This document shows, piece by piece, positions 5,838 to 52,962 of a DNA stretch of 64,000 bases (position 1 is its first letter; each line of letters opens with the position of its first letter). The translations under genes were made by a program, and so were the position numbers. Under the pieces are notes generated by a model, which made no database searches, was not told where the DNA came from, and saw only the letters and a list, made by a program, of their open reading frames with translations. This DNA comes from Terriglobia bacterium (GTDB lineage: Bacteria > Acidobacteriota > Terriglobia > Terriglobales > Acidobacteriaceae), in the NCBI GenBank assembly GCA_963732195.1, contig CAVSYO010000006.1, forward strand, positions 40,970-104,969, written 5' to 3'.

Positions 5838-5874
5838 TTTTGCAGCCTTCTGCTTAGAAGGCAGAGGGACATAA
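5838..5874. repeat. Candidate attL core (37-bp direct repeat, copy 1)
   Basis: TTTTGCAGCCTTCTGCTTAGAAGGCAGAGGGACATAA, identical to 42006-42042. The flanks are unrelated. Confidence 0.75.
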
Positions 5875-11193: not shown

Positions 11194-11988
11194 TTGGGAA
11201 CTGATAAAATCGACAAAGCCATGATTCCCTGGTACGTCAAGATCCCTGCAAAGATCGTTCTCTCGCGCCTGCCTGTAAATCCGCTCACTTGGCAGCGGCT
11301 AAATCTATTCCGTGCTGGAGTGATGGACAACGAAGAATCCGCACGCTCCATCTTTTTCACGCACCTGAACGCCACTGGCTTCTCGAATCTCGCTGGCAAA
11401 GCTGTGCTCGAACTCGGCCCCGGCAATGGGTTGCTTACTGGAAAATTCGCCGCTGAACTGGGAGCGTCAAAAACGTGGCTGATTGATGCCGCCGCCATTG
11501 CCGAACCTGCTTCGTTTCCTAATACTGAATATCTCAGCAATGGGCTGGCCTCGCTGCGAACAGTTCCAACAGCCTCGGTCGATTTCCTGTTTTCCAATGC
11601 TGTGCTGGAACACATCAGACTCAAAGAGTTACCCGATACGATTGCCGAAATGAAGCGTGTTCTAAAGCCGAGCGGAGTGGCATCTCACCAGATCGACTTT
11701 CGCGACCATCTAGGCGGTGCGCTGAATAATCTTCGGTTCTCAGAGGACACATGGGAATCAGACTTTATGGCCAAGAGTGGTTTTTATACGAACCGCGTTC
11801 CCTGGTCGCAAATGGCTGAGCTGTTCCGCGAAAACGGGTTTGCGTCTGAAGTCATAAAGCATAATTCCTGGCCAGAGCTTCCAACTAAGCAGCGTTCCAT
11901 GTCCCCGCCGTACTCTGACATGCTCTCAACAGACTTACTGGTTTGGGACTGCCATGTGGTACTGCGTCCTTACAAACTTTCAGTTTAA
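11194..11988 (+). CDS. Class I SAM-dependent methyltransferase (Methyltransf_11/23-like)
   Basis: AVLELGPGNGLLTG (motif I), VDFLFSNAVLEHI and MKRVLKPSGVASH. The start is TTG 11194 or ATG 11221. Its 3' end overlaps the convergent fibre gene by 9 nt. Confidence 0.75.
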   Translation: MGTDKIDKAMIPWYVKIPAKIVLSRLPVNPLTWQRLNLFRAGVMDNEESARSIFFTHLNATGFSNLAGKAVLELGPGNGLLTGKFAAELGASKTWLIDAAAIAEPASFPNTEYLSNGLASLRTVPTASVDFLFSNAVLEHIRLKELPDTIAEMKRVLKPSGVASHQIDFRDHLGGALNNLRFSEDTWESDFMAKSGFYTNRVPWSQMAELFRENGFASEVIKHNSWPELPTKQRSMSPPYSDMLSTDLLVWDCHVVLRPYKLSV

Positions 11989-14349: not shown

Positions 14350-14389
14350 GGTTCTCCTGAAAAATGGCCAAGGGCCAAAAGATGATTTT

Positions 14390-29662: not shown

Positions 29663-31084
29663 TCAGGTTGAACTTTTTCTGGCGATCCAGAATTTTGCGG
29701 CGAACCATTGTTCTGAAGAGCGAAAACACCCGTAGTCGTGATGACGGCATTGCTTGACGCCGATGGGGTGTTTGCCCAGGCTTTCGCGGACTTCGTCGAT
29801 GGAGAGGACGCCGGCGCGAACGTAAATGTCATCAATCTTTGCCTGCTCCAGCGCGTTCAGAGTGCGGTCCTGCTCCCAGACAAATTCGATGTCACTGAAG
29901 CCGAAGTGGCGAGTGACAATGAAATTGATGGTGTCAGCCAGGTAGCCGAGGATCGGCACAAGGCCTTCCGCGGCGGCTTGCTCCACGCTGGTCTCTGCGG
30001 TGGCGCGGTTCATCACGCTGACAAACTGCTGCGGCGAGAGACCGAAGGCATAACAGACGATGCGGGTGATCCATTCGTCCAGCGCATCTTTCAACATAGG
30101 ATCGCGCGTGAACTGGAGATTGCCGCATTCGGGAACAAAAGTGATGCGACGGCGACGGGCAGAGTTTCCGGCCAAGGCACTGTCAAACCATTCCTGGAAT
30201 TCGCTGATCTGGTCAGACGACCACTCTTTGGGAACCTGCGCCAGGGCTTCCGGGACGTTGCCTTCAGTGTAGTAATTCAGCAGGTGAATCTGGCGGCGCA
30301 AGCCGATGTTAATGGTGAGAATGATCTGCTCAACCGGCGAGAAACCAAAAAACTTGTGCGCGCGCACGTTGCGCGGGCGATAGATGAGCTGGTCGGCAGT
30401 GAAGTCTACGGCCGGCAAACCTTTGAGGATCTGCTGATAGGCGATTGCCGGCGATGCAGGTGTGCGTCCCATGGCGTCAATCTTGCGCGCGATGGTGGAG
30501 CCGTCAATGACTTCCAACGCATACAGCGCCTTGCCGGGAGACCACAACTCACCATCCTGCGAGACGATGGGCACGAGAACCGGTGCGTCGAGGACAAGCA
30601 AATCTTCAAGCAGAAGCCGAACCCATTGCTGCCAGCTGTGTTCGCGATCTGGGTAAGAAAAGAAATTTGTGAGCTGCGTGAGCCGTGGATCGCGCTCTTC
30701 ATCGTCATTGCCGCTGATGGCGTTGTTGCTGGTGTTGGCGGAGCGCTTTGGCCCGCCAGCCTGGGTCTTGAGACGAAACGCCCAGGGCATGCGGCTGACC
30801 TGGTCTTTGCGCGTCTCAATGCAGAGACGAACAAGATCATACGAATCAGCCAGAGAACGCATCTGCTCAAAAGAGATGGGCTCCATGTTGCGCGGCTGAA
30901 TGTTGATGTTGTAGCCGACTGGGTAATCGAGCGTCCGCGGTGGAGTGCCGGCTGGCGCGCTGGGCGCCATGGGAAGATCGGGCCCAAACCAGACGTCGAG
31001 CGTATTGCGCAGCTTGCGGCCGACGCGCTCTACGAAGCCGGTTTCGAGGGCTGTAAGTTTTCCGCCATTGAGTATTTCAGGCAT
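29663..31084 (-). CDS. Portal protein
   Basis: 473 aa. The call rests on size and position upstream of the protease, and on portal-like regions such as SFEQMRSLADSYDLVRLCIETRKDQVSRMPW. Confidence 0.85.
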   Translation of the reverse strand: MPEILNGGKLTALETGFVERVGRKLRNTLDVWFGPDLPMAPSAPAGTPPRTLDYPVGYNINIQPRNMEPISFEQMRSLADSYDLVRLCIETRKDQVSRMPWAFRLKTQAGGPKRSANTSNNAISGNDDEERDPRLTQLTNFFSYPDREHSWQQWVRLLLEDLLVLDAPVLVPIVSQDGELWSPGKALYALEVIDGSTIARKIDAMGRTPASPAIAYQQILKGLPAVDFTADQLIYRPRNVRAHKFFGFSPVEQIILTINIGLRRQIHLLNYYTEGNVPEALAQVPKEWSSDQISEFQEWFDSALAGNSARRRRITFVPECGNLQFTRDPMLKDALDEWITRIVCYAFGLSPQQFVSVMNRATAETSVEQAAAEGLVPILGYLADTINFIVTRHFGFSDIEFVWEQDRTLNALEQAKIDDIYVRAGVLSIDEVRESLGKHPIGVKQCRHHDYGCFRSSEQWFAAKFWIARKSST

Positions 31085-31086
31085 AG

Positions 31087-31254
31087 TCAGGCAATCCCCA
31101 CTTTCACGCCCATCACGGCGGAAGTTTCAATGATGAATTCAATCAGAGAGTTTTTGCGGTACGCGGACTTCATGTGCTCATCCTGAATGCGCAGGCCTTC
31201 ATGCCAGCGGCACTGGCCTGCGTCATCGATGATGTATTCGCCTATCCATTTCAT
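31087..31254 (-). CDS. Small hypothetical protein directly upstream of portal
   Basis: ATG 31254 gives MKWIGEYIIDDAGQCRWHEGL... It ends 3 nt before the portal ATG. The GGAG lies in the repeat unit upstream. Confidence 0.4.
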   Translation of the reverse strand: MKWIGEYIIDDAGQCRWHEGLRIQDEHMKSAYRKNSLIEFIIETSAVMGVKVGIA

Positions 31255-31265
31255 AATGTCGCTTC

Positions 31266-31492
31266 GCTCCAAACCGCTTCTGCAGTGTCGATCTTGTGAA
31301 CCGTGTTATGCCTTGGCGCTGGCGGCTCGGCGATTCGAGCCTCGCCGCCCTTGTGTTTTCCTGTCGCTTCGCTCCAAGCCGCTTCTGCTGTATTCAGAAA
31401 TTAAGAGCCATCAACGCCTGGGGCGGGCAGCTCGGCGCGTGGTGGCCTCGCTGCTCTATTTCCCACCCCTTGCTCCAACCGCTTCTGTAGCG
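31266..31492. repeat. Three tandem ~101-105-bp degenerate units sharing a 22-bp core (GCTCCAAnCCGCTTCTGnnG)
   Basis: The cores are at 31266-31287, 31371-31392 and 31472-31492. Units 1 and 2 also share a GC-rich hairpin segment. Confidence 0.8.
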
Positions 31493-31532: not shown

Positions 31533-32072
31533 TTAGTAGCCGACGATCACGCGGTCAGTGCAGGTGCCGGCGGTGGCGACGTCATTTTTCTCAAAGAAAG
31601 AGACAGCGAGTTGCGGCAGACGAACGGGCGCCCCCAGCGTTCCACTGGTGACTGTGGGAGCAAGCTCAGTGGCCAGATATGCCTGCTGCGCGCCAGACGC
31701 CATGTTGGTCGCGATGACATAACTGTTATAGAAAGTGAAATTCGGGCTCGACTGACCCTGATCGTCCGCGGTGTAAACACTCATGACCAGATCAAAGTTC
31801 TGGGTGCAAGAGGCGAAGACCGTCATCTTGGTGGCATCGCCAACGCGGATGATGCTGGTGTTGGGAGTAGCGCCTCCAATGGAAGCCGGGAGAGCTACGC
31901 CGCTGTGCGCCAGATCCGTGGGAGAGTAAACCAGGTGAGGCATGGGGCGCGGCAGCACGGGCTTGCCGTTTTTATCCAGCTCAGGGAACTGGCTGGAAGT
32001 TTGCGAGAAGACGAACAGCGTGGTGATGCTCAGCAGTCCGAGGATGGCGACGTACAAAGTTCGTTTGTTCAC
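31533..32072 (-). CDS. Secreted hypothetical protein
   Basis: 179 aa with signal peptide MNKRTLYVAILGLLSITTLFVFSQ. Confidence 0.7.
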   Translation of the reverse strand: MNKRTLYVAILGLLSITTLFVFSQTSSQFPELDKNGKPVLPRPMPHLVYSPTDLAHSGVALPASIGGATPNTSIIRVGDATKMTVFASCTQNFDLVMSVYTADDQGQSSPNFTFYNSYVIATNMASGAQQAYLATELAPTVTSGTLGAPVRLPQLAVSFFEKNDVATAGTCTDRVIVGY

Positions 32073-32089
32073 GGTTATCTCCAGGTTTA

Positions 32090-32162
32090 TTTTCAGGGGC
32101 TAAAGCCCAGATCATTTGGGACGACTGATGGCACGAGTAAACCCGTGCCCTGACACTTGTGT
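32090..32162. repeat. REP/MITE-like element, family A (copy 1 of 2 in window)
   Basis: TTTTCAGGGGCTAAAGCCCA...GGCACG..CGTGCCCTGACACTTGT. The second copy is at 49617-49690. Confidence 0.8.
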
Positions 32163-32231
32163 CGTATGCAGACAGGGTTTCGTTAGGGATGCTTGTTGCG
32201 GCGCAAAACTATTCTGGCTCACGCCGTGCAG

Positions 32232-32440
32232 CAGCGGAGCCGATCCCTCACCACTCGGTCTCACCCAAGGCTCAACCTCGGAATTCGGGATGGCATGTCG
32301 AGAAAGGAAACGGTTACTGAGCTCGAAGTCTTATCCGGTACTCCGCGAGCGCCCTTACGGTCTTAGCAGAGGCTCGATCTCGGAGTTCGGGATGGGATGT
32401 CGAGAAGGAAACGGCGACTGACTTCCCGGTTATCCGATGC
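32232..32440 (-). repeat. Two tandem ~102-nt units, each containing a 5S-rRNA-like segment
   Basis: The 44-45-nt cores at 32269-32313 and 32371-32414 are about 85% identical. The minus strand of unit A reads ..GACATCCCATCCCGAACTCCGAGATCGAGCC.., and CCCATCCCGAAC is the conserved 5S loop C region. Confidence 0.5.
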
Positions 32441-32456
32441 GTTCAAAAGGTCTGTT

Positions 32457-32714
32457 TTATGGTCTCCCCAGAGATTCGATCTCAGCCGGTGTCACAGCCT
32501 CAAAAGGAGAGAATGCGGACGAACTGGAACGCAATGCAATACGGGAGCGCCTCTTCCTCTTCTTTAACATGGGAAAAGGATAGAGTGCGCAATAGCAGTC
32601 GACGCAGAGCGATCGCGAAAGCTCCGACACCGAACGCCGCTCGTCAGAGTTGAGGGGCGCGTTACATTCTTCACAGCGCGGCGGACCGACACGGCCGTTA
32701 TGATCGTGTGCCAT
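32457..32714 (-). CDS. TraR/DksA-type C4 zinc-finger protein
   Basis: PRCEECNAPLNSDERRSVSELSRSLCVDCY has CxxC..(17)..CxxC spacing typical of phage TraR-like proteins. Confidence 0.6.
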   Translation of the reverse strand: MAHDHNGRVGPPRCEECNAPLNSDERRSVSELSRSLCVDCYCALYPFPMLKKRKRRSRIALRSSSSAFSPFEAVTPAEIESLGRP

Positions 32715-32812
32715 GGAAACACCTCTGCGCCAGACGCAGACCGGCGCGGACAGCAGAAGCGGCCTGAGACGGCAGGTTGAATTGTTTTAGGTTGAGACAG
32801 CTGTGGAGGAAC

Positions 32813-32847
32813 GGTAATTGGTATTTGGTACTTAGTATTTGGTAATG
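32813..32847. repeat. Degenerate heptanucleotide repeat (GTAATTG GTATTTG GTACTTA GTATTTG GTAATG)
   Basis: Read directly. It belongs to the same unit family as 7627-7664. Confidence 0.75.
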
Positions 32848-32972
32848 CGCAGGTTTCTTGCCGTGTCTGCCCCTAATTTGCAGGCTTTCGGGTGCAAGAA
32901 CTAAATTTGCAGGTTCTGCGGGGAATTACTTTCTTTGAACTGTTTTGCAGGCTCTTTTTGACGGTTTTCGGG
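32848..32972. promoter_or_regulatory. Iteron- or operator-like array: four TGCAGG(Y)T(Y)T-containing direct repeats spaced ~30-37 bp
   Basis: AATTTGCAGGCTTTCGGG (32875), AATTTGCAGGTTCTGCGGG (32904), TTTTGCAGGCTCTTTTT (32943) and TGCGCAGGTTTCT (32847). They lie in a 620-bp divergent intergenic region. Confidence 0.4.
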
Positions 32973-33296
32973 AACCTATCATTCTGCGATGGAGTAAGAA
33001 CCCATGAAGGTCCTTTTGCTCTGCTCCCGATGTGTGCGCGCATTCCCGCCGAAACAGCCAAAGACGCCACATGCAAAAGCCCAGAATGAGGTTCCCGCAG
33101 CAGACGCAAACGATACGCCGGCCTTGGAAAGGTTGCAGGCCGTTGGATTAAGCCGGCGCCGCTCCCGGCTATGCAGAACCGACTTCCGTTCTGCATAGAC
33201 ATCTTATACGACAAATAGCATTTGGAAGTCAATAGGAAAAATCGCTTTTTCTCACATTTTTTCGAAATATCTGCTTATTATCGGACATGTCTAGCA

Positions 33297-33325
33297 TTGA
33301 CAATTATTTAGACATTGCTTAGACT
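33297..33325 (+). promoter_or_regulatory. Sigma70-like promoter candidate for the plus-strand cargo genes
   Basis: TTGACA (33297-33302), a 17-nt spacer, then TAGACT (33320-33325). The ATG is only 12 nt downstream, so the transcript would be nearly leaderless. TTAGAC occurs three times here. Confidence 0.3.
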
Positions 33326-33337
33326 TTAGACACACTT

Positions 33338-33743
33338 ATGGCGCGCGAAACTTACAAGCAGGCTTACGCGACAGCGAAGCACGATCTGCTGCAGCAGCTC
33401 CAAAAACGAGACGACCTGGACCAGAAGATCCGCAAACTCAAACAGACGGTCAAGGCCCTGGGCGAAATGTGCGGCGCCCCGCCGGAGGAGATCGACAAGC
33501 TGCTCCTGGTGGAGGGCTTTGCCATTGACGCCAAGCCGGGATTCACTGAATCCATTCGACGGCTGTTCCGCATACACCAAACGGCACTAGGTCCAGTCGA
33601 TATCCGTGAGGACCTGGTGAAGATGGGAATTGGCGTGGGCCAGGTAAATCTGCTTGTCGTCAATTCACACGGTTTTGCGCCGAATGGCGGAAGCCGGCGA
33701 AATTGAAAGAACTGAGGATGGCAAGTTTCGGCTGCCAAATTAA
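33338..33743 (+). CDS. Hypothetical coiled-coil plus winged-helix-like protein (one apparent frameshift)
   Basis: The tracked ORF 33338-33706 ends in junk. The +1 frame from about 33655 reads SSIHTVLRRMAEAGEIERTEDGKFRLPN, a wHTH-like C-terminus, with the stop at 33743. Confidence 0.5.
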
Positions 33744-33896
33744 AGTATTTGTTCCATTCCAAAAAAATGTTTGAATTGGATCGATGAAACGATTCGTCCC
33801 GTTTCTGTAACGATTCGACCGCTTGCGTCACTAAACTACCAGGTGTGGTGTTTTACACGGACACCCCGAACATTGACATGAAAGTGAGATGCCTGC

Positions 33897-35142
33897 ATGC
33901 CGCAAGGATTGGACAACCTGAAACATATTGTTGTGCTGATGATGGAAAATCGCTCCTTCGACCACATGCTGGGCGGACTGAAGAAGAAATTTCCTAAGAT
34001 CAACGGACTGACAGGAAATGAGTCGAACCCAGACAGCGCGGGGAATATGGTGCAGGTGTCGGCGACCGCGGACTATCGCGGGCAGCTGAGCCATGATCCG
34101 GACCATCACTTTCCCGGGCGCGGATGTGCAGATTTATGGCGGCGTGCCGTTCTCGCCTGGGCGCGTAGCCAACATGCAGGGCTTTGTGAAAAGCTATGGG
34201 ACGCAAGGCCCGAATGTGCAGGATTCGCATGCGATCATGAAATATTTTTCGCCCGAGCGAATTCCGGTTTTAACCACGCTGGCGACTGAGTACGCGGTAT
34301 TCAACGGTTGGTTCTCGTCAATTCCAGGGCCGACCATCTGCAATCGAGCCTTTGCGCACTACGGCACGTCCTTCGGCAACGTGGACATGAACATGTTCCT
34401 AGTCAGCGACGCCGACCGCGCGAAAATCCCGACGATTTATGAGCGGCTGGCGGCTGGCGGGCACAGCGCCAAGCTTTATTACTATGATCTGCCGAGTTCC
34501 ACGATGGAGATCGTAAACCTGATCAAGGACCAGAGCTTCTTCGGCGTGTTCAGCGATTTTGTCGCCGATTGCAAATCCGGGAAGCTGCCAGAGTACAGCT
34601 TCATTGAGCCGAACTACACAGACCATCCAGGGCCAGGCGGCGGACAGTTGCTTGCCACGGACCAGCATCCGGATCATCATGTGCTCGCGGGCGATAATTT
34701 CATAGGGAAAGTTTACGACTGCATCCGCATCAATGCTGATCTGTGGAAGAGCACGGCGCTGCTGATTGTCTACGACGAGCACGGCGGGCTCTACGATCAC
34801 GTGGTCCCGCCAAACTGCACTCCGGACGGCTTTGAAGCGCCGGAAGCGGCGACCGGAGTTCCCGGGCTCACGTTCAAGTTCGACCGATTGGGGATTCGCG
34901 TACCGGCGATCCTGGTCTCGCCTTACATTCCGCGAGGCACGGTGGTGCCAGGAACGGAAGGTCCGAACCCCAGGATTTTCGAGCATGCGTCGATACCGGC
35001 GACGGTGAGCAAGCATTTCCTCGGCGGCCAGGACCACGGAACGGTGCGCGAGCAGAACGCGGAAACTTTTCTTGATCTGCTGGGCAACAACCTGCGTCCG
35101 GACAACGACTGCGTGTTTTTCCCTAAGGCAATGAAAGGCTGA
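33897..35142 (+). CDS. Phosphoesterase-family protein (phospholipase C / AcpA type), one apparent frameshift
   Basis: NLKHIVVLMMENRSFDHMLG in ORF 33897-34289 continues in ORF 34093-35142 (..LIVYDEHGGLYDHV..). The junction is at the CCCGGG run near 34115. I see no signal peptide. Confidence 0.8.
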
Positions 35143-35145
35143 GCT

Positions 35146-35493
35146 ATGGCGATCAAAGATGCTCCTACTGTTGACATCATTGAGTTTGACGAAAAAGAGG
35201 CTTACAACCACGACCGGCCGATTTCCAGCTTGGTCCGCACGCAGCTGCTGCATCTGCATCATGCGGAGCACCTGGTGATCCCACCCAAAGAGCGGACCAA
35301 CATCAACATCAACACGCTGCACACCGAGTACGAAGCCACCAAGTACATAGAAAAGGTGACCGCCCTGTTGCACAAGCATGGGAAAAAAGCTGCCAAAAAG
35401 CCGAAACCGGCTAAGAAGGCCTCTGCCAAGAGGACTGCCAGCAGATCCAAAAAGACGAAGTCAGCTGCAAAGAAGCGTACGTCACGCAAGTAA
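35146..35493 (+). CDS. Hypothetical protein with Lys/Ala-rich histone-H1-like tail
   Basis: It starts 3 nt after the phosphoesterase stop. The C-terminus reads KKAAKKPKPAKKASAKRTASRSKKTKSAAKKRTSRK. Confidence 0.6.
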   Translation: MAIKDAPTVDIIEFDEKEAYNHDRPISSLVRTQLLHLHHAEHLVIPPKERTNININTLHTEYEATKYIEKVTALLHKHGKKAAKKPKPAKKASAKRTASRSKKTKSAAKKRTSRK

Positions 35494-35503
35494 GGAGAAG
35501 TCA

Positions 35504-36919
35504 GTGCGTCGATTCATGATCGCGTTCGTGTTGCTTTCGGCAAGCCTGTGTGCACAGCAACCTACTCCCACCCCAACGCCAGATTCCGGTGTCGAGAACG
35601 AAAAAAAGCAGGAGCCGGCGACCGAAACGGGCAAGTTTAAAAAGAATTGCCCCAAGCATATTGTGGGCTGCGCGGAAGTGCTCTTCACTGGACAGCCGTT
35701 ACACATCGCAGTGGGGAGCATTGCGCCGCAAAACGGCTTTGGCGCCGGACTGGCTTACGTGGGACACAAAGACGGTGATGATTGGAGCAAGGCGTGGAGC
35801 GCGGACGCCGTCGGATCGAGCAATGGATCGTGGCGCGCGGGCTTCTACCTGAAATTCGTCGGCACGCACCTTGAGCGGTCCGACGTTAGCATGGGAGTCC
35901 CGAAAGACGTCGGCGACGTACAGGCTTATGTGGAGCGACCGGTTTACAACTTCTACGCGCAGTCAACCTCGCTCAACAAGCTGACGTTCTTCGGCGAAGG
36001 GCCGGCAACGACAACCGCAGGGCGATCATTCTTCGGCATGACGGAGCACATTGTCGGCGCCAGCGCGGTGTGGCCGATTTTTGCGAAGCTCAACGCGGGC
36101 ATCTTCGCCGAGTTGAACGGGCGATTGCCGGAGATCCGTCCGAGCACAGGCCAGGGCTCGCCTTCGATAGAGACGCTGTACACGCCGGCGACGGCACCGG
36201 GGCTGGCGCACCAGCCTTTCTTCCTGCAGCCGGGGGTCGGGGTGAGAATGCGGCCCGCGACGAAGAATAATTTGCTGCATTTGAATTACGCCGCGATGTA
36301 TCAGCCGTTCATCGATACAGACGGTTCGGGTTTTTCATTCCAGCGGCTGACGTTTGATCTTTACCAGGAAATTTCGATCCATCACACGAACATGTACGTA
36401 GCGCGGGACGCGAACAGTCCGAACGATTGCCGTCAAGATGCCACGAGTGATGATTCGACATGCCCACGTGCGACTACCACAACGAGCCAGGCGGGGACGT
36501 TGGGGCTGCGGGTGTTCAACTCCCTCTCGATGACGCCCGGGACGAATGTTGTGCCGTTTTATTTGCAGCCGACGCTGGGCGGATCCGACATCAACGGGAG
36601 CCCTTCACTCAGCAGCTACCAGGATTACCGCTTTAGGGCGCCGAATGTCCTACTGCTACAGGAATCATTTGATCATTCGCTCGGCCACTGGCCGCTGGGG
36701 ATCACGCTCCGTGCCGATCAGGGCAAGGTTGCTCTTTTGCGCGGCGACCTGGGAAGCAATCCGTGGAGACATAGCTATGCAGCCGGCGTTAACCTGCGCG
36801 CCGGCGGGTTCCCAATGGTGTATCTGCTGTTTGCGTTTGGCGGACACGAAGGCACGCATACGATCGTGAACGTGAATACGTCATTGCTGGGAAGTTCGGC
36901 GAGGCCGAGTTTGTTCTAG
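35504..36919 (+). CDS. Outer-membrane beta-barrel protein candidate
   Basis: GTG 35504 (behind AAGGAG) or ATG 35516. It has signal peptide MIAFVLLSASLCAQQ, alternating beta-strand-like sequence, and a terminal ..SSARPSLF with C-terminal Phe (OMP beta-signal). Confidence 0.65.
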   Translation: MRRFMIAFVLLSASLCAQQPTPTPTPDSGVENEKKQEPATETGKFKKNCPKHIVGCAEVLFTGQPLHIAVGSIAPQNGFGAGLAYVGHKDGDDWSKAWSADAVGSSNGSWRAGFYLKFVGTHLERSDVSMGVPKDVGDVQAYVERPVYNFYAQSTSLNKLTFFGEGPATTTAGRSFFGMTEHIVGASAVWPIFAKLNAGIFAELNGRLPEIRPSTGQGSPSIETLYTPATAPGLAHQPFFLQPGVGVRMRPATKNNLLHLNYAAMYQPFIDTDGSGFSFQRLTFDLYQEISIHHTNMYVARDANSPNDCRQDATSDDSTCPRATTTTSQAGTLGLRVFNSLSMTPGTNVVPFYLQPTLGGSDINGSPSLSSYQDYRFRAPNVLLLQESFDHSLGHWPLGITLRADQGKVALLRGDLGSNPWRHSYAAGVNLRAGGFPMVYLLFAFGGHEGTHTIVNVNTSLLGSSARPSLF

Positions 36920-37125
36920 AGTTTGAAATTCCAGTAGCAAGGTAAGGCCAGGGTTTTTTCGCGGTTAATGGAGCCGTCGTCATTTCTGAAGACGGGAGTC
37001 TCGGGCTCGACACCGCCGGAGGATTGGCTGAGACAAGCAGCGAGCCGGGCAATAAATTCATCGTCAGTCATAGAGTTCCTTTTATGCTAGTTTTGGGTTG
37101 AAGATAGAGGTACGCTCTTCCCTAA

Positions 37126-37822
37126 ATGCCTGACCTAAAGAAGCTCATTGCCCTATTGAAACGGGCTTACGGCGCTCCCAAGCTGCCATTGGCGAAAGGA
37201 CCGTTTGAGCTGGTGGTGTGGGAGAACGCCTGCTACCTGCTGCCTGACGATCGCCGTGCCGCTGTGTTCGAAGGTCTGCGGAAACAGATTGGTCTAAATG
37301 CAAAAGCAATTCTCCAAGCCGATGCTAATGTGCTGCTGGCGTTGGCTACGATGGGCGGCATGCGTCCCAAGGTGCGTGTTTTTCGCTGGCAGGAGATTGC
37401 ACGGATTACCCTAAGCCAGTTTGATGGTGATCTGGACCAGATACTCAAGCTGCCATATGCGCAAGCCAAAAAAGCGTTGAAACAGTTTCCGAACATCGGC
37501 GATCCCGGCGCGGAAAAGATACTGATGTTTTGCGGCGCGTCGCCCGGGTTACCGCTGGAGTGGAACGGCTTGCGTGTCCTGACACGCGTTGGGTATGGAC
37601 GGTGGCAGAAAAATTATGGCGCTGCGTACCGGTCAGTGCAAGAAGCGCTTGAAGCCGGAGCTTCCGCGCAAGGCGGATGCGATTGCCGCAGGCCCATTTG
37701 TTGCTGCGGCAACATGGAAAAGAGATCTGCCGGGACAAATCGCCGCAGTGTTATGAATGTCCGGTGAAGGAGTTGTGCGCGTATCCGGCAAAACAGTTGA
37801 AGGTGTTTAGCCGGGGAGCGTA
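37126..37822 (+). CDS. HhH-GPD (endonuclease III-like) DNA glycosylase with Fe-S cluster loop, two apparent frameshifts near the 3' end
   Basis: It has HhH-like LKQFPNIGDPGAEKILMF. After two +1 corrections (about 37656 and 37690) the C-terminus reads AHLLLRQHGKEICRDKSPQCYECPVKELCAY, which is C-x6-C-x2-C-x5-C. Confidence 0.7.
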
Positions 37823-37826
37823 GGGT

Positions 37827-37940
37827 TCTTGTGCCGCCCCTACGGGGCTTCCTCATGTTTAACTCTTACCCACCCTTCTCGGCTCGCATACGCTCGCCTT
37901 CAGGGTGGGCTAACCTTGGTCGCGCCTTACGGCGCTCGGA
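37827..37940. repeat. REP/MITE-like element, family B (copy 1 of 2 in window)
   Basis: ..GTGCCGCCCCTACGGGGCTT..CCCACCCTTCTCGGCTCGCATACGCTCGCCTTCAGGGTGGGCTAACCTTGGTCGCGCCTTACGGCGCT. The second copy is at 47300-47413. Confidence 0.8.
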
Positions 37941-38001
37941 TTACCGTAAATCCGTGATTCATCTTGCCCGTTGAGCGTAATTGGGTTCCCCTATAGCGGT
38001 T

Positions 38002-39914
38002 TTATAGATACCGTAGACCAACGCAAAAGAAACACACAGGCTCGCCTCCGGCGCTACATCTCGGCGCTGAAGAAAGCGCGCCCTCATCTACGGGGCTCGG
38101 GATGATGGCCGGTTTCTGATCCGTCGCTTCCTGGCTTTGTACCGTAGTTCTAGAATTTACCTCCGGCTCATTGCGGTTCAAAAACAATAAATCCAATCGC
38201 TCAATCTCACTGCGTGCCCACAAGGCATTAGGCTCATTTTCACATTCACTCCATCTCGCCACAGCGTCGAGCAGTACCGCGCGGACCGTTGGATACTGCT
38301 TGAAATTGCACTGGATCTGGCTGCCCTGGGTAACGGCAGCAATCACGTTGCGCACGAGGACCGAATCCGAGGGTGCCTGCGGTCCACGGTCAATTTTTGA
38401 GCCGCGTTCAGACGGCTTGATGCTTCGTCCGGATGAAACTTCTCCTGTCGCCTGCTGGCGATAGAACTCAACGATGCCGCCGCCGAGACGGCTGCGCATA
38501 TAAATGAGCGCCTGCGAAGTCGCATCAACGTCATCGTCATGCGCGGCCTTGGGAAATGTGCAGATATTGTGCAGATAGTCTTCAATCCAGGTGCAGCCGA
38601 AGACCTGCGGATCAGGCAGCTCAATGCTGCCGGATTCCCAAAGCGGCGCGGTGGCCTGAGCGCGGGCGAGCTTGCCGCCTTCAGGATTTACGGCAACCAC
38701 TCCGGCAATTTCCTTCTGTAGCTCACTGATAATGGCGGGCCCGTTAGCCTTATCTTCAATCAGCACGGCGTGCGCCTGGGGAAACTTGGCATGGCAGGCT
38801 TTGATGGCGGCCATGGTAGGACCGAAATCAAGCCGGTCATAAGTGCGATACGGAAGCATGAAATATTTTCCGCCGGAGCGCGCCCAGACCTGGCCGGCGA
38901 CAAAGTCATTCTCCTGGCCGCCGCTAAAAGTGCAGTCCCAGGACTGGACCATGAACTCAAATTTTTCCGGCAGCTGGCGATAAAAGCGCACCCACTGGCG
39001 CTTGATGATGCCGCCATCGAGCGGCGCAGGCGTTTGCTGATATTGTCCGTTGAAGGCCCAGCTACCCATGCCGACGCGCTGGCTATCAAGAAAAGATTGC
39101 GGCAGTCGAGCGGACCAGAGCAGTTCACCAGCCTTCTGATTTACGACTTTCTTCGATTTAGGGAATTTCCATGGTTGATCTTTCGGCGCAATTGCCGGCA
39201 GGCTCACATGTTGCCAGCGGCTGCTTTCACGAGCAAGCACGTGGCCGGTGAGATCAAGCTCATGCAGGCGCTGCATAATAATGATCTTTACGCCGGTGGC
39301 GGGATCATTGATGCGGCTGCGAAACGTGGTATCAAAACGCACGTTAACCGCTTCCCTTTCCACCTGGCTGATGGCCTGCTCCGGGTTGAGCGGATCGTCA
39401 AAGATCAGAATGTCACCGCCCATGCCAGTGGCAGTGGCCTGCATTCCGGTGGAGAACATGGTGCCGCGCGAAGAATTCTCATAATGGCTTTTGACGTTCT
39501 GATCACGCGAGAGCGAGAAGACGCTGCCCCACTCTTCCTGGTACCACGGTGACTCAATAATGCTGCGACGGAAAACGCTGTGCTGCGTGCTGAGTTTTTC
39601 AGAATAAGAAACGAACATGAAGCGGCGCGACGGATCGGTGGTCCACACCCAGATGGGAAAGAAGACGGATGATCAGAAGGCTCTTCATGGTCCGCGGAGG
39701 AACGTTGAAAATGATGCCTTCAAGGTCAGCGGCAAATGGTCTTGAAATTGCCGTCCCTGATCAGCGTGAGGTATTCACAGATAAGATCGAGATGCCAGCT
39801 CCAGACGAGAGTACTGACAGGCTCAAGGAGATGCCAGGCATGCTCAACAAACTCTTTGAGTGTGAGATTGAGGACCTGACTCTTCCCAACCGCATTTTGC
39901 TTTGGTTCACTCAT
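38002..39914 (-). CDS. terL: Terminase large subunit (two apparent frameshifts in the first ~260 nt)
   Basis: The main ORF 38002-39648 has MGGDILIFDDP (Walker B-like), a nuclease region and HDDDVDATSQAL. The N-terminus is in ORF 39726-39914. The P-loop-like IIFNVPPRTMKSLLI is in a third frame in between. Confidence 0.85.
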
Positions 39915-40971: not shown

Positions 40972-41198
40972 AAGGCCTGCTTCGCGAGATATCTTTCAAA
41001 AAGCTTTTGAGCGCATGCCTGGCCGCAAGCTGGCTCATCATTCGAGCGCAAGTCAGTAGCGGCAGAGTATGGCCGGCAGGTAAAACGCTGCTCAACAGAG
41101 ATGATGAACCAATGATTGGCCTCGCGGCGGACGTTGGTGCATCCCGGCGCGGCACACTTTATGGTTGTAACCAGATGAGGATTGCGTGGCTTGGTCAC
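40968..41198 (-). CDS. Small Cys-rich hypothetical protein
   Basis: GTG 41198 behind GGAGG gives TKPRNPHLVTTIKCAAPGCTNVRREANHWF...EPACGQACAQKLFERYL. There is a GTGA overlap with the upstream stop. Confidence 0.45.
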   Translation of the reverse strand: MTKPRNPHLVTTIKCAAPGCTNVRREANHWFIISVEQRFTCRPYSAATDLRSNDEPACGQACAQKLFERYLAKQAL

Positions 41199-41959
41199 AA
41201 GCAAACCTCCAGAGATCCAAATTGCGAAAACAACTTGATGAGTGCCTGGGCCGCATACCATGCGAGACATGAACGGACTGCGCGCATTACGCGGACAAAG
41301 AGCAAAGTTAGAGTGTCTGGATGCGAGATTCTAAACAATGGCCGATTGCGGGCTGTTGACCAGCTCGCGCTGCAGTGAGACTGATAGGCAAATTGATTAC
41401 TGCAAGAGCATTGAGTTCGATTGGGAGCGGAGACAAAGCCGTCTTTCTCAATAGAAAGGGCGACGGAGACCAGCTTCTCTCTCCAACCATGACTCAGTTC
41501 CGCATTCGTATCGGAGTCGGTCCAGTGACCGTCGGCACGATGGTCGTCAAGACAACTGCCGCAAAACCGACTGTCACAGTCAAGGCATACATAAAGATGG
41601 GTACTGCAGAAATCCTGTTCGCAAACAGGACATGACGCAGACGAATGAGTGCCGCAAACGAGACACAGACGATCATCTAGCAAAAGATTGGTTGAGAGGA
41701 CAGAATGATCGGGAGAACCTGAAAACGATAACGAATGTGTTTTTAAGGCTGCGAACAAATGCCGCGGCCTTCGAGCCTTCGCGCCTGCAATTAGTGGATC
41801 GCTAAGCCCACGTAGCGACGCGGCACCTTGAGTGATCGAGTGTTCACCTACTAGGTGAAGCGTCGGAGGCAGCTGTCTGCAAAGGCCTTTTTGCTGCCGT
41901 GGCTGAGAGGTTGAACTAGTTGATTGAAATCGAGCCGAGTCAAAGAGCAATGCAATCAT
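41195..41959 (-). CDS. Hypothetical protein with B-box-like multi-Cys zinc-finger; start uncertain
   Basis: CLVCGTHSSASCPVCEQDFCSTHLYVCLDCDSRFCGSCLDDH. The tracked start (42040) lies inside the att repeat and is unlikely to be real. Confidence 0.4.
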   Translation of the reverse strand: MIALLFDSARFQSTSSTSQPRQQKGLCRQLPPTLHLVGEHSITQGAASLRGLSDPLIAGAKARRPRHLFAALKTHSLSFSGSPDHSVLSTNLLLDDRLCLVCGTHSSASCPVCEQDFCSTHLYVCLDCDSRFCGSCLDDHRADGHWTDSDTNAELSHGWREKLVSVALSIEKDGFVSAPNRTQCSCSNQFAYQSHCSASWSTARNRPLFRISHPDTLTLLFVRVMRAVRSCLAWYAAQALIKLFSQFGSLEVCL

Positions 41960-42005
41960 CGCTTTTGAGAGCTGAAAGCAGTATCCGACTGTGGACAGGC
42001 CGAGA

Positions 42006-42042
42006 TTTTGCAGCCTTCTGCTTAGAAGGCAGAGGGACATAA
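42006..42042. repeat. Candidate attR core (37-bp direct repeat, copy 2)
   Basis: Identical to 5838-5874. Confidence 0.75.
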
Positions 42043-42217
42043 TTCTGTGGAAGTCGTCGTGAATTAGAGAATAGGCGAATCAAATTGCTTGAGCCATGTA
42101 AAGCACTCAACTTATTTGAGAGCAGCCTGTTACACTGGGGCTCGATCAGCGGTGGGTTTCCGATGAGTTGTCATTGCTGCATTGCTTCAACTTTCAATTA
42201 TCATTGTTTTGCCAATT

Positions 42218-42593
42218 GCTCTGATTCTTTGCTCTGATTCTTTGCTCTGATTCTTTGCTCTATCTTGATCCTTTGCTCTAATCCTTTGTTTTTGGTCCAT
42301 TGCTCTGATCGTTGCTTTAGCGATCGCCATGGCCCATCGATGTCTCTCTTTGTTCTTTGCGTTTTCTCTTGCTGTTTTCTTTTGCCTGTTTTCTTTTGCC
42401 TGTTGCCAATTGACGTTAATTATGGTTTGCGCTTAGTCTTACTCGTGCCTCCTTGTGTTGCTTCTGAAAGGTGCATAGCTTGCTTGTGTTGGCTTGCTTG
42501 TGTTGGCTTGCTTGTGATAGCTTGCTTGTGTTGGCTTGCTTGTACTTGTGTTGGCTTGCTTGTGCATAGCTTGCTTGTGTTGGCTTGCTTGTG
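42218..42593. repeat. Block of three short tandem-repeat families
   Basis: 13-bp GCTCTGATTCTTT x3 plus degenerate copies (42218-42320). 14-bp CTGTTTTCTTTTGC x2 (42372-42399). 14-bp GCTTGCTTGTGTTG about x8 (42478-42593). Confidence 0.9.
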
Positions 42594-43109
42594 GGCCGTC
42601 GGTCTAGGCCTGGCGGCGTGTGTACCAGTTGCGAGAACACTTGCTTTGGGATTATGCGGTTTAGTGATTCGGTTGCAACCTGGAGTTCAACTGAACGATG
42701 GCGTGTTGCAGCAGATTGAGTCCGATTGCCCATCGACGCAACGGATCGTGGTCGCTGTCCGCCAAAGCCGGTCACGTACGCTGTCAAGCAGAACCCTGTG
42801 ACGGAAGAGTTTGGCTCTTTACAATGGGGCTTACGCTCCAGTTCGACGTTGCCGCTCTCTCCGGATGGCGCTGTACGGCTTTTTCCCGATGGTTCTGTCT
42901 TGCCCAATGGTTCCGTCTTGAATGAATCGTCACAATGTAACAAATCAGCTCTCTGAAATTCTTGCGCGCTCGATTGCTTTCCTTCAGTCAAGGCAGCGAA
43001 CTCGCCGTGATTCAGTACTCTGCCTTGTTCGTCATGAGCCGTAACTTTGGAAAGCTCTTCTCGACGTAGTGCGCGCACATGTCTACCATCGTCAAAGACG
43101 TTGGCGGGT

Positions 43110-43751
43110 TCATCCTGAATCACTCTCACATGCATGCCGTGATTTGTAACTCTCGCAGATTCCTCCTGTAGGCGCGATATCCGTATACTCTCCGTAACGC
43201 GCGACATCGGCCTGCCCACTGTGATCCATAGTGTCGTCATTTCCGGATAAACTCATTCCAGAATCTTTCACAGTCTTGGATAGCATGCCGCCTTGCTCAG
43301 CTTCATTCTCAGACACAATTTTTTGCTGATGGTAGTAACAATTGCGAATGACCAGTTCCACGGTAGCCGCGATTTCAGGGGCTTGGCTGAGCAGCCGGCA
43401 AAGTTCTTTAGCAAAAGCTTCATGCTTTTCAACCGAGCAACGTTCCCTTTCGTCTACAAAGACCAGGTCAACGTAAGAAACAAATTTGCGGTCGCCAAAT
43501 ATCTCTTCTGCCGGCGCGACTTCATTGCTGGCCCAAGCATCACACTTCGCAGTTGCCAGCGGAAAGCCAGTGGCGTTAATGCGCGAGAGAAACGAGCCAA
43601 GTTCCGGATAGGCTACAGCTTCAGGAATTTTCTGCACCAGCTCAGGGTACTTTTTCAAGTCATAGTAGCGGACGTGAGGATCATCGGAGGACCAAGGGAT
43701 TTCCAGCGCTGGAGCGTCGCCGCCCAACTCAACAGAAAAGTCGGCTTGCAT
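43110..43751 (-). CDS. Conserved-looking hypothetical protein, translationally coupled to the hydrolase gene
   Basis: 213 aa. The ATG overlaps the hydrolase stop. The C-terminal end may be affected by frame problems. Confidence 0.55.
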   Translation of the reverse strand: MQADFSVELGGDAPALEIPWSSDDPHVRYYDLKKYPELVQKIPEAVAYPELGSFLSRINATGFPLATAKCDAWASNEVAPAEEIFGDRKFVSYVDLVFVDERERCSVEKHEAFAKELCRLLSQAPEIAATVELVIRNCYYHQQKIVSENEAEQGGMLSKTVKDSGMSLSGNDDTMDHSGQADVARYGEYTDIAPTGGICESYKSRHACESDSG

Positions 43752-44749
43752 CAGCGCATTCCATGATGCTGGAAGAAGTGCATAATCTGGCGTTCTGCCC
43801 AGCGCCCATCGTATCCATTCGGCTGAGCCAAAAAAGCGCAGTGGCCGCCGTGAGCGGTTTCCAGCAGAGTAATGTGCGGATTAGCCATGATCTTGGCGCG
43901 GGTTTCCGGCAGTAAGCGGATAAAAGGATCGTCGGTGGCATGGATCACCAGAGTCGGCAGCGCAATGTTTTCAATCACGCGATACGCGCCAGAGCGCGTG
44001 TAATAATCCTGCGCGCTTTCAAAGCCGCAATAGCGCGCGGTAACCACATCATCAAATTCGCGGATGGTGGTGGGAAAGCGATCGACCTTTTTATATGTGT
44101 CAGGAAATAACTTGCGTTTGCGTTCATAGGTGCGCATCAGGCTGACGAGAAATTTCCATTCGTAGATGCGATTGCCGCCCACATGCATGGCGTCCGCAGA
44201 TGCGGCCAAGTCCGCCGCCGGAGAAACCGCCGCTACCGCTTTCAGTTCGGCAGGCGCACCCGCGCCCAGTTCGCCGGCAAGTTTCAGCACCAGGTTGCCG
44301 CCCATGGAGTAACCAATCAGCCCCACGCGTGAAACTTTTCGTTGCTCAATCACCGTACGCAGCACCGCGCCCACATCGCTAGAAAGGCCGGAATGATAAA
44401 GCGTTGGCGTCAGTCCTCCGGTGCCTCCGCACGTGCGCATGTTCATCCGGACGACGTTCATGCCGGCGTCCCAGGCTTTGGCGGAATTGCCAATCACGTA
44501 TTGTGACAGGCTTGAGCCCTCAAGCCCATGAACGATAATGACAGTCGCCCGGCGCTCGGCGTCGGCGTGCCAGTGGCAGTGGGCCAGGACCTGGGTATCG
44601 GCGTCCACTCGATACAGACATTCTTCCGGCGCGGGCAGTTTGTTTTTGCGGGGAAGGAAGTTGCCGGCCAACGTCATGGCGTGCCGATTGCGCAGATAAC
44701 GACGCGGAACAAATGGATCGAAAATCGGGTCTCTTGAATTTTCAGCCAT
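43751..44749 (-). CDS. Alpha/beta-fold hydrolase (YheT/ABHD-type)
   Basis: VIIVHGLEGS.., nucleophile elbow GYSMGGN, and a C-terminal ..TAHGGHCAF. Confidence 0.8.
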   Translation of the reverse strand: MAENSRDPIFDPFVPRRYLRNRHAMTLAGNFLPRKNKLPAPEECLYRVDADTQVLAHCHWHADAERRATVIIVHGLEGSSLSQYVIGNSAKAWDAGMNVVRMNMRTCGGTGGLTPTLYHSGLSSDVGAVLRTVIEQRKVSRVGLIGYSMGGNLVLKLAGELGAGAPAELKAVAAVSPAADLAASADAMHVGGNRIYEWKFLVSLMRTYERKRKLFPDTYKKVDRFPTTIREFDDVVTARYCGFESAQDYYTRSGAYRVIENIALPTLVIHATDDPFIRLLPETRAKIMANPHITLLETAHGGHCAFLAQPNGYDGRWAERQIMHFFQHHGMR

Positions 44750-44821
44750 GCTGCTACAAATGAACTCTTGCGAGTTCGCCTATAATAATGATGCTGTAAC
44801 TATTTTAACCGAGCGCACAAA

Positions 44822-45136: not shown

Positions 45137-45212
45137 GGTGGGTATAGTTCAGTGGCAGAACGCCAGACTGTGGCTCTGGATGTCGTGGGTTCGACCCCCA
45201 CTACCCACCCCA
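45137..45212 (+). tRNA. tRNA-His (GTG)
   Basis: It has the extra 5' G(-1), acceptor GTGGGTA/TACCCAC, anticodon loop CTGTGGC, T-arm GTGGG-TTCGACC-CCCAC, and an encoded CCA. Confidence 0.93.
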
Positions 45213-47299: not shown

Positions 47300-47413
47300 T
47301 CTTGCTGTGCCGCACCTACGGCGCTTGATCTTCGTTATCGCGTACCCACCCTTCCGGCTTCGCATGCGCTCGCCTCAGGGTGGGCTAACTTCTGGTCGCG
47401 CCTATCGGCGCTT
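47300..47413. repeat. REP/MITE-like element, family B (copy 2)
   Basis: Alignable by eye over ~110 bp with 37827-37940, including the CCCACCCTTC...AGGGTGGG palindrome. Confidence 0.8.
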
Positions 47414-47634
47414 GGATGGTTCAGGCTCGTAACACCATGTCATCCAAAGCATCTGCCCACACAGACCCGGCGAAGGATGCGGGGCGACCGCTTTCAAGAT
47501 AAAGATAAGAATGGGCGAGACCAGCAAAGATGTTGACCATTGCAGCCGTACTGCGTCCTGATCCCCTAAAATAACCGCAAAATATCAGAACACTTTCCGT
47601 TCTCCAGCTGTCTTTCCTTTCAGAGAAAACACAA

Positions 47635-49441: not shown

Positions 49442-49616
49442 CCGATGGAAGCCGGGTTATGCAAGTCGGCAGCCCCAGCAATCACGTGTGGAGTAGGCTT
49501 CCCTCGAGTGCCCTGTGAGGAAAAGTAAAGGGCTGCAGAGGCTGAAACGAGAACATAAAGACGCCATTGCAGAACTGAACAAGTTGCGGGAAAAACAGTG
49601 TCAACCGGCATTTTGG

Positions 49617-49690
49617 TTTTCAGGGGCTAAAGCCCACTCATTTTAAACACTTACGGCACGACTGAAGTCGTGCCCTGACACTTGTCACGC
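49617..49690. repeat. REP/MITE-like element, family A (copy 2)
   Basis: TTTTCAGGGGCTAAAGCCCA...GGCACGACTGAAGTCGTGCCCTGACACTTGT. Confidence 0.8.
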
Positions 49691-51882: not shown

Positions 51883-52862
51883 CTACGCGATCCCGGAGAG
51901 CAGTTCATACGACCGCAGCCGCGCGGAATGATCATAGATAGCGGAGGCCACCATCAGTTCGTCAGCGCCGGTTTGCTCGATGAATTTTTCCAGTCCGGCG
52001 CGGATGGTTTGTGGCGAGCCGACAAAGGAGCAGGCCAGCATGTTGGAAACCTGCGCTTTTTCCATGGGCGACCAGTAGGACTCAATGTTATCGATAGGAG
52101 GCGCAAGTTGGCGGCGCGTACCGCGGACGGCATTGGTGAAAGCCTGCTGGGCGGAGGTAAAAAGTCGCTTGCGCTTCGGCGTCAGTATCGGCGACAATTA
52201 CGTTCACGCCGACCATTGCGTAGGGCTTCTGAAGCTGCGCCGATGGCTTGAATTCCCTGCGGTAGACCTGGAGCGCCAGCATGAGCGCATCGGGCGCGAA
52301 GTGGGAAGCAAACGCATAGGGTAGGCCGAACTCGGCCGCAAGCTGCGCGCCAAAGAGACTAGAACCAAGGATCCAGATAGGAACATTCGTGCCAGCGCCG
52401 GGAACAGCCTGCACGGTTTGTCCGGGTTGCAGCGGACCCAGAAATGCCTGGAGTTCACGCACGTCATGGGGAAAGTTGTCGGCGCTGCTGGGATCGCGGC
52501 GAAGAGCGCGTAGAGTTCGCTGGTCAGTGCCGGGAGCGCGGCCAAGACCTAAGATCGATACGTCCGGGATAGAGCGATTCGAGCGTGCCAAACTGTTCGG
52601 CGATGACGATGGGCGAATGATTGGGCAGCATGATTCCGCCGGCTCCAACGCGGATGGTGGTCGTGCCGCCGGCAACATATCCGATGACGACCGAAGTAGC
52701 GGCGCTGGCGATACCGACCATGTTATGGTGCTCGGCCAGCCAGAAACGCCGATAGCCCCAGCGCTCAGCGTGCTGGGCGAGATCAAGGGAATGGTGCAAA
52801 GCGTCTGCCGGGGTGGATCCTTGCGCGATGAAAGCGAGATCAAGAATGGAGAAAGGGACCAA
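51883..52862 (-). CDS. LLM-class (luciferase-like) flavin-dependent oxidoreductase, two apparent frameshifts
   Basis: The three ORF pieces are 52524-52862 ([19 protein letters not shown]..), 52088-52843 and 51883-52197. They join as ..[18 protein letters not shown].. (about 52552) and ..[15 protein letters not shown].. (about 52171) if one nt is removed at each. Confidence 0.8.
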
Positions 52863-52962
52863 AAGATTCCTTGTGCGGTTGCAACAATACTGATGCTGTG
52901 GAGGCTACTTGAGGTTCACAACTAAAAGAAAACCGCTGGTGCGAACCAACCTGGCGCATTCC

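Follow-up and report, generated by a model that had tools for sequence, protein, structure and literature searches.

Morons are extra genes lodged between the conserved late genes of phages, often with a promoter of their own and often on the opposite strand; they are expressed from the prophage, and some are host-derived. Lambdoid and HK97-like phages are reportedly where such genes have been described, including lambda lom and bor and the morons of HK97 and HK022. P2-like and P4-like elements are said to have hotspots of variable cargo that hold defence and toxin–antitoxin systems. Phages also possess promoter-proximal antitermination elements, among them the put RNA of HK022 and the nut/N and qut/Q systems of lambda. 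To our knowledge, Candidatus Angelobacter and related Terriglobia, which are abundant soil bacteria, have almost no characterised phages, and literature searches on a moron slot between the large terminase gene (terL) and the portal gene, and on Angelobacter prophages, returned nothing relevant. Here we analyse the terL–portal interval of a prophage in a 64,000-nucleotide stretch of a Terriglobia bacterium assembly (GCA_963732195.1, contig CAVSYO010000006.1, positions 40,970 to 104,969 of the forward strand), hereafter the window, to which all coordinates refer unless another locus is named. The window DNA is from Acidobacteriota, with relatives in Candidatus Angelobacter and other Terriglobia. 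A sequence-only reading had proposed that a cargo island splits the normally adjacent terL and portal genes and physically breaks the packaging–head operon. The interval is probably a modular slot, accessory and regulatory in character, inherited within a family of temperate phages from Candidatus Angelobacter and other Terriglobia.

The interval is bounded below by the portal gene (29663-31084, minus strand; Pfam PF04860), the product of which is 75-95% identical in relatives, and above by terL (38002-39914, minus strand), with a PF17289 nuclease domain within 38002-39648(-) and an N-terminus that three-frame translation places in 39726-39914. The 6917 bp that separate the terL stop from the start of portal contain eight open reading frames (ORFs), three on the late (minus) strand (orf55, sec179 and zf85) and five on the plus strand (p122, a phosphoesterase gene (pes), a gene for a small Lys-rich protein, an outer membrane (OM) barrel gene (omp) and an EndoIII-like glycosylase gene (endo)), in agreement with the layout first proposed.

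A portal protein search yielded 68 related loci (30 from genomes and 38 from IMG/VR), which were compared with the island proteins by tblastn, and a nested series was read from the 27 of them in which both terL and portal are present. Gaps between the two genes range from about 0.4 to 8.9 kb across these 27 loci. At one end of the series stands the nearest outgroup, L064, with no interval genes and terL and portal adjacent across 375 bp, followed by L024 with one REC-like gene, L020 and L021 with sec179 alone, and L028 with zf85 and sec179. The set of p122 and zf85-sec179-orf55 is found in L002, L018, L034, L036, L039, L010/L054 and L004, and is joined by the EndoIII-like gene in L003, L017, L026, L068, L044 and L031. 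A HipA/HipB step is represented by L013, L055, L007 and L075. The phosphoesterase–Lys-rich–barrel step gives the full island, with the same genes at the same place as in the window, in L050, L015, L059 (without p122), L001, L008/L051 and L056/L027.

The complete set of island genes occurs in at least eight loci, IMG/VR contigs included, and more than 20 loci share the collinear order p281-p100-p135-p204-terL-[interval]-portal-protease-capsid. L050, an apparently intact IMG/VR contig of 36.7 kb with the full island, has intact ORFs for terL (668 aa), portal (500 aa), capsid (497 aa) and the protease-scaffold in the 21 kb covered. To the extent that sequence can tell, relatives that may be functional phages carry the same island at the same place, the outcome that the earlier reading had named as its refutation. 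The premise that terL and portal normally adjoin holds for the outgroup, but the split is not specific to this prophage, and the view that the island broke the packaging–head operon fails against the same layout in relatives and the intact ORFs of L050. A split terL–portal pair is by itself no evidence of a broken prophage.

The island is a real feature with an ordinary explanation, that of a moron or cargo hotspot: its position is fixed and its content variable, part of the cargo is host-acquired, and the cargo is dispensable, related and apparently intact genomes (L002, L018, L034, L036, L039 and L010) having p122-zf85-sec179 only. It resembles morons in placing extra genes, some host-derived, between late genes, with presence and absence among close relatives. 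It differs from them in lying at the terL–portal junction, which is normally tight, and in being a multi-gene slot of up to ~9 kb with a conserved anchor gene (p122) and control region, not a single self-contained unit. With the hotspots of P2-like and P4-like elements it shares a fixed position and highly variable cargo, including a HipA kinase (430 aa) and a HipB-like helix-turn-helix (HTH) antitoxin in the slot of L013 (5384-7011), L055 (4734-6334), L007 (1868-3480) and L075 (2548-4154, with HipA truncated). The cargo of the window differs, comprising an envelope/phosphoesterase operon and a DNA glycosylase, with no PADLOC defence system. One fixed slot thus makes phage cargo readable, from the phosphoesterase/barrel operon and the DNA glycosylase to the HipBA toxin–antitoxin. 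Less ordinary are the unusual junction, the conserved two-arm architecture and a covarying leader RNA that has no Rfam relative.

The first gene of the opposite-strand arm, p122 (33338-33740, plus strand), encodes a protein with a coiled-coil N-terminus and a winged-HTH-like C-terminus and without a Pfam or PDB match. A cluster-level search returned 314 homologues, at least 82% identical and from this phage family only; nearly all have 134 aa, with a few of 135-180 aa among those listed. Together these properties mark p122 as a core anchor gene and not as cargo. Downstream of it, the phosphoesterase gene (33897-35142, plus strand) matches PF04185, the phospholipase C (PLC)/acid-phosphatase family, in two frames, one scoring 180.6 bits and the other 39.3 bits (gathering cut-off 23), that jointly cover profile positions 2-353 of 356. 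The gene is intact in L008 and L050 (414-415 aa). Stop codons lie directly upstream of its start, and no signal peptide is encoded. A narrower assignment to the phosphatidylcholine-specific PLC/AcpA equivalogs was rejected on NCBIfam scores of 108.5 against 580 bits (TIGR03396) and 54.8 against 363 bits (TIGR03397).

The small Lys-rich protein (35146-35493, plus strand) occupies the middle of a triad completed by omp (35504-36919, plus strand), a secreted protein of 471 aa with a signal peptide, a C-terminal Phe and a predicted 16-strand OM beta-barrel. More than 2650 omp homologues were found, and the protein has no Pfam assignment. Its AlphaFold2 (AF2) model is of moderate confidence (predicted local distance difference test (pLDDT) 61, predicted template modelling score (pTM) 0.65), and Foldseek matches it to the barrels of TamA, BamA and CdiB with E values of 2e-6 to 1e-4, in line with the earlier OM barrel label. 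The 16-strand barrels of Omp85, TpsB and TamA are therefore the closest known folds, omp sharing with them the signal peptide and C-terminal Phe, but it has only ~60 non-barrel N-terminal residues, no POTRA domain and no Pfam Omp85 match, and we did not assign it to the Omp85 superfamily. The last cargo gene, endo (37126-37820, plus strand), encodes an HhH-GPD glycosylase that matches Endonuclease III-1 of Deinococcus in the PDB (E 1.5e-13), as its earlier Endo III-like label implied. In intact relatives the protein has the HhH-GPD domain and a C-terminal four-Cys Fe-S loop, CRDKSPQCYQCPVKELC; its NCBIfam scores fall under the equivalog cut-offs.

The triad is a conserved chromosomal operon of other Acidobacteriota. 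The order phosphoesterase, small protein (108-128 aa) and barrel (~468 aa) recurs in L076 (6447-9404), a 1.47-Mb contig, and in L077 (6310-9410), a Vicinamibacterales contig, among ordinary chromosomal genes (patatin, extracytoplasmic function (ECF) sigma factor, kinase and peptidases) and without phage genes. From these non-phage contexts it follows that a host operon was acquired as a unit by the phage lineage. Host capture, one of the two origins first suggested for the island, thus stands for the triad at the level of the lineage and falls as a local event in this prophage. Our guess is that the triad acts in the envelope or in phosphate/lipid metabolism. L001 has, between its terL and EndoIII-like genes (1409-3265), four ORFs of one orientation (255, 119, 134 and 139 aa) that matched nothing in Pfam or PADLOC and may constitute a defence or accessory system.

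Compared with intact homologues, the window contains 13 one-base frameshifts and, in a screen with real genes, no in-frame stop; an earlier stop screen with all ORFs of the relatives was discarded because it drew in spurious non-coding frames. The integrase gene (6107-7070, minus strand) has one, an extra A in an A-run at 6885 that leaves it in two frames, and the tail protein gene (14480-17315, minus strand), a single 1035-aa ORF in L068, has four (~14950, 16403, 16990 and 17150). One lies in the protease-scaffold gene (~28800) and one in the last ~20 codons of the portal gene (29723-29751, ~29735), where the frame switches relative to L008. In the interval, p122 carries a one-base insertion private to the window (~33655), the phosphoesterase gene a one-base insertion relative to five relatives (~34111-34118), and the EndoIII-like gene two frameshifts within 37653-37690 (~37655 and ~37685) that put the Fe-S Cys motif out of frame. 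DNA alignment to five relatives places two one-base insertions in terL (~39670 and ~39731), flanking the Walker A segment. The island does not account for any disablement of terL; this copy may instead be disabled by its 13 frameshifts, the two in terL among them.

Whether this copy is a decaying prophage or an assembly error is close to an even call, which we tip slightly towards real decay. Only a little short of an even chance goes to the alternative that the assembly, whether long-read or of a mixed population, introduced all 13 frameshifts as consensus errors, the prophage being intact, terL and cargo included. The uniform one-base size of the indels and the lack of in-frame stops in real genes are what such errors would leave, and the integrase protein is 100% identical, on both sides of the inserted A, to an intact 320-aa homologue in JGI contigs that share the host flank. 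Private indels occur in the same genes of the nearest relative, L075, itself a ‘contig_N’-type assembly, and the prophage shows no large deletions and has perfect att repeats. Several insertions nonetheless lie outside homopolymers, and host proteins with Pfam domains are full length. Host DNA at 1-4948 is likewise free of indels relative to 99.7%-identical Illumina contigs, although at the prophage rate ~1.8 indels are expected in these 4.9 kb, a sample too small to decide between decay and error. DNA-level gap counts between relatives were left out of the indel-rate calibration because variable intergenic and low-complexity stretches dominate them. Frameshifts in contigs of the long-read type call for read-level confirmation. 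In the host DNA, a luciferase-like monooxygenase ORF (51886-52915, minus strand) covers profile positions 152-241 of 314 only and overlaps the next same-strand ORF; it may reflect a frameshift in a host gene and so bear on the assembly question.

The two arms of the slot diverge from the zf85–p122 intergenic region (32715-33337), the divergent control region of the earlier reading, which measures 623 bp, is strongly conserved at both ends and carries two conserved divergent promoter-like sites. Facing zf85 and portal on the minus strand is a sigma-70-like promoter, TTGACT-N18-TATAAG (33202-33232), from which transcription would start; its consensus is TTGAC[AT]-N18-TATA[AC][GA], and 35 of 36 loci keep TTGAC[AT] and GTCGTATA unchanged or almost unchanged. 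On the plus strand, the promoter-like sequence TTGACA-17-TAGACT (33297-33325; scan match 10/12) is overlapped by three TTAGAC(A/T) repeats and is conserved in relatives, with the start of p122 13 nt past it.

Directly downstream of the minus-strand promoter lies a 247-nt leader RNA candidate (32955-33201, minus strand), a multi-helix junction with the invariant core GCCGGGAGCGGCGCCGGC...AACGGCCTGCAACC. Each of the 41 loci that span this position has it between p122 and zf85, with pes replacing p122 as its neighbour in L059. In the RNAalifold prediction, seven helices comprise 34 pairs, with GGGA/UCCC closing the structure, and the helices vary in sequence between subfamilies with pairing retained. 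In a MAFFT alignment, 95.5% of cells are paired, as against 32-52% with slid partners, and 15 of the 34 pairs show compensatory changes; none of 500 shuffles attains any of these measures. A covariance-model alignment of 44 distinct sequences, which is fitted to the structure and hence biased towards it, gives 96.5% of cells paired and compensatory changes in 20 of the 34 pairs. The leader has no Rfam match, and its exact core is confined in IMG/VR to this phage family, surplus matches in the exact-core scans being chance occurrences in GC-rich coding DNA that add no further families. Covariation makes the leader a concrete candidate for a new phage regulatory RNA.

The terS-like gene p204 of L018 (5420-5492), L026 (1341-1461) and L056 (748-892) has a second copy of the core, GCCRGGAGCGGCGCYGGC...CGGCCTGCAACC, in its 5' leader; degenerate versions are found elsewhere too. 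In L020, where sec179 stands alone between terL and portal, the core lies upstream of p204 (6002-6211), with a separate TTGACA promoter-like site ahead of it. The short hairpin of these second copies (GCCAG...CTGGC) shows a compensatory change from G:C to A:T. This distribution suggests that one regulator acts on both late operons. In window-type phages the element would be a late-operon leader ahead of zf85-sec179-orf55-portal, in which case the terS-like/terL and portal–head genes would form separate transcription units.

The leader shares with put, nut and qut the character of a structured conserved element in hairpin-rich DNA directly downstream of the promoter of a long late operon, and it has a small basic protein, zf85, encoded next to it. 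Promoter-proximal position and structure agree also with processive antitermination RNAs as represented by put and EAR. It differs in having no sequence or Rfam similarity to them and in size, the 247-nt multi-helix leader being far larger, and zf85 is unlike N or Q. We offer only as a tentative possibility that the leader, alone or with zf85, is a new class of late-gene control element, for example one of processive antitermination; any joint role of zf85 is speculation. Were this so, the element would restart and protect transcription of the head–tail operon downstream of the cargo slot. The terS-like/terL operon, at which copies of the invariant core are found, would be a second target, and one could then understand how these phages accommodate repeat hairpins and kilobases of cargo on the opposite strand in their morphogenesis region.

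An unlikely alternative is that the block at 32955-33201 acts not as RNA but as a protein-binding DNA element (a late-activator or packaging site) or a short coding gene. The core GCCGGGAGCGGCGCCGGC is invariant in sequence instead of covarying and recurs upstream of the terS-like gene, and a 119-aa ORF overlaps the block. Compensatory changes in 15 to 20 of 34 pairs, with helices that differ between subfamilies, speak instead for RNA, as does the conserved promoter directly upstream. Single-base indels in the block among otherwise intact relatives disrupt every reading frame and exclude that it is coding.

On the late strand below the leader, the product of zf85 (32457-32714, minus strand) is a small zinc-ribbon protein with the pattern CxxC...CxxC; its basic tail reads KKRKRRSR here and RGRP in relatives. 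The protein is restricted to the family, with 24 cluster representatives among 1.84 billion proteins, and has no Pfam (E <= 0.01), PHROG or PDB match. The sequence-only reading had called it TraR-like; the CxxC...CxxC pattern is all that it has in common with TraR/DksA C4 zinc fingers (no PF01258 or PDB match), and we dropped the label. Between zf85 and sec179, a duplication of a ~46-nt core (32255-32425; two copies at a spacing of ~100 nt, 89% identical) is a family feature of variable copy number, present in one or two copies in ~20 relatives, and folds no better than shuffled sequence. It had been likened to 5S rRNA, which we reject, there being no match to Rfam RF00001 at the gathering threshold or at E <= 1.

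The most widely retained interval gene is sec179 (31533-32072, minus strand), which is present in all close relatives. It encodes a hydrophobic N-terminal helix followed by a jelly-roll-like beta-sandwich (AF2 model pLDDT 68.6) and has no significant PDB match; a fold search gave generic jelly-roll matches only, none at E <= 0.001. All 272 homologues from a cluster-level search belong to this phage family, and the sec179 and p122 homologues together serve as markers by which the locus defines a widespread temperate phage family. The distance from sec179 to portal varies among loci from 87 to 829 bp, and in the window this stretch holds three copies of a ~100-105-nt repeat with the core CAGAAGCGGYTTGGAGCGAAGCGACA (31257-31490, minus strand), the last of which contains the ribosome-binding site of orf55. 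The repeat occurs in one to five copies per locus in 40 sources (blast), its copy number varying across the family. The small conserved ORF orf55 (orf55/61; 31087-31254, minus strand) ends in a stop that overlaps the portal start (ATGA); residues 7-61 are 68-100% conserved in most relatives by tblastn, and it has no match in Pfam or PHROG.

Both pairs of dispersed repeats noted earlier are present in the window. REP-A spans 32086-32164 by nhmmer, with a second copy in the host flank at 49614-49687, and the pair 32124-32160 and 49649-49685 is 84% identical; it forms the hairpin GGCACG..CGTGCC and has 38 hits in 29 sources, mostly just upstream of sec179. REP-B spans 37826-37943, in the gap where the EndoIII-like gene and terL converge, with a second copy at 47302-47419 (79% identity between 37830-37899 and 47306-47375), and has 17 hits in 13 sources and strong minus-strand hairpins (-55 kcal/mol, z = -3.5). 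The dispersed intergenic copies and conserved imperfect palindromes of both are those of repetitive extragenic palindrome (REP) or miniature inverted-repeat transposable element (MITE)-like families, and the window, which includes 28 kb of host DNA, has two copies of each. Relatives carry both in their intervals, IMG/VR contigs included, at times in multiple copies or at shifted positions; they are therefore a lineage trait of phages and hosts and not a sign of residence time, so that the proposed invasion by host repeats during long residence finds no support. At the two ends of the cargo arm are the conserved promoter-like site, upstream of p122, and the REP-B hairpins, at the 3' end; terminators are not enriched.

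It is very improbable that a recent local event, either capture of host chromosome or invasion by host repeats, split a contiguous terL–portal operon in this prophage. Such an event would account for the REP copies common to the flanking host DNA, for the host-derived part of the cargo and, through long residence, for the frameshifts. It does not account for the dozens of related loci, in other genomes and in viral contigs, that have the same genes in the same order along with the same REP families, and protein identities of 75-95% exclude that these relatives are copies of one recent clone. The window cargo is just 56-57% identical to the two chromosomal homologues with examined context, and no cargo homologue was seen in the host flanks, which were given no dedicated search. 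A comparison of tetranucleotides among island, phage and host, as had been proposed, cannot discriminate, the signatures of phage and host being all but the same (r = 0.95); the island correlates at 0.85-0.87 with both.

A perfect 37-nt direct repeat, TTTTGCAGCCTTCTGCTTAGAAGGCAGAGGGACATAA, occurs at 5838-5874 and 42006-42042, and the two copies, 36.2 kb apart, are probably attL and attR. The integrase gene lies at the left end of the bracketed region and the collinear late region occupies the remainder, which together make this one single prophage. That terL at 38-40 kb belongs to a phage remnant other than that of the head genes, with the island as the junction of two elements, might explain why terL is disrupted, but the conserved terS-like/terL-[island]-portal synteny, within a p281-to-capsid order shared by more than 20 loci, and the enclosure of the whole region and its integrase by one repeat pair leave this close to excluded. 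The right copy of the repeat overlaps the start codon of a Cys-rich ORF (41195-42040). Just beyond it, a 14-nt unit, GGCTTGCTTGTGTT, is repeated in tandem ~8 times (42471-42593). The array falls within ORFs of one strand (42187-44779) that overlap one another and, judged by a 335-aa ORF of L003, seem to be frameshifted. A tRNA-His(GTG) gene (45138-45212), 3.1 kb beyond the right end of the prophage, is not the attachment site.

Several points weigh against reading the interval as an inherited accessory and regulatory slot. Neither PHROG nor PADLOC returned a match for sec179, zf85, p122 or the triad, and PDB sequence, PHROGs and PADLOC searches of sec179, zf85, p122, the Lys-rich protein and omp likewise gave nothing. 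Conservation is the evidence for the putative promoters, transcription units and RNA, and an intrinsic-terminator scan found 10 sites against 9.1 expected, which is no enrichment. The tetranucleotides fail to separate island, phage and host, and the IMG/VR contigs that carry the island may themselves be prophages. Three of the five opposite-strand genes are frameshifted in the window, and either the window cargo is not under selection or its sequence is wrong.

The sequences themselves show the synteny, the nested series of gene presence and absence, the host operon, the covariation of the RNA and the conservation of the promoter motifs. For transcription units, regulation and cargo function we infer the following arrangement. 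Two arms would diverge from the 623-bp control region. The late-strand arm would run from its promoter through the 247-nt leader, zf85, the membrane-anchored sec179, the repeat array and orf55 straight into the portal and head genes, the terS-like/terL and portal–head genes most likely being two transcription units and the leader, perhaps with zf85, most likely controlling or insulating transcription into the head genes. In the opposite arm, a predicted strong promoter overlapped by the TTAGAC repeats would drive p122 and then exchangeable cargo, which is the host-lineage triad and EndoIII-like glycosylase in the window and HipBA, other genes or nothing in relatives. Like morons, the cargo is most likely expressed in the prophage state and would alter the envelope or phosphate metabolism of the lysogen. 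The REP hairpins at gene ends, common to the host genome, would most plausibly act as transcript-end or stabiliser elements.

Two further observations concern the late genes. Across the phage family, the Walker A segment of terL reads NVPPRTMKS, with Met replacing the usual Gly (window 39671-39730(-); L050 1453-3459), and the protein extends ~150 aa past its nuclease domain. The 885-aa ORF at 11980-14637 contains three tandem 36-nt (12-codon) repeats (13561-13668) and probably encodes a tail fibre or tape-measure-like protein.

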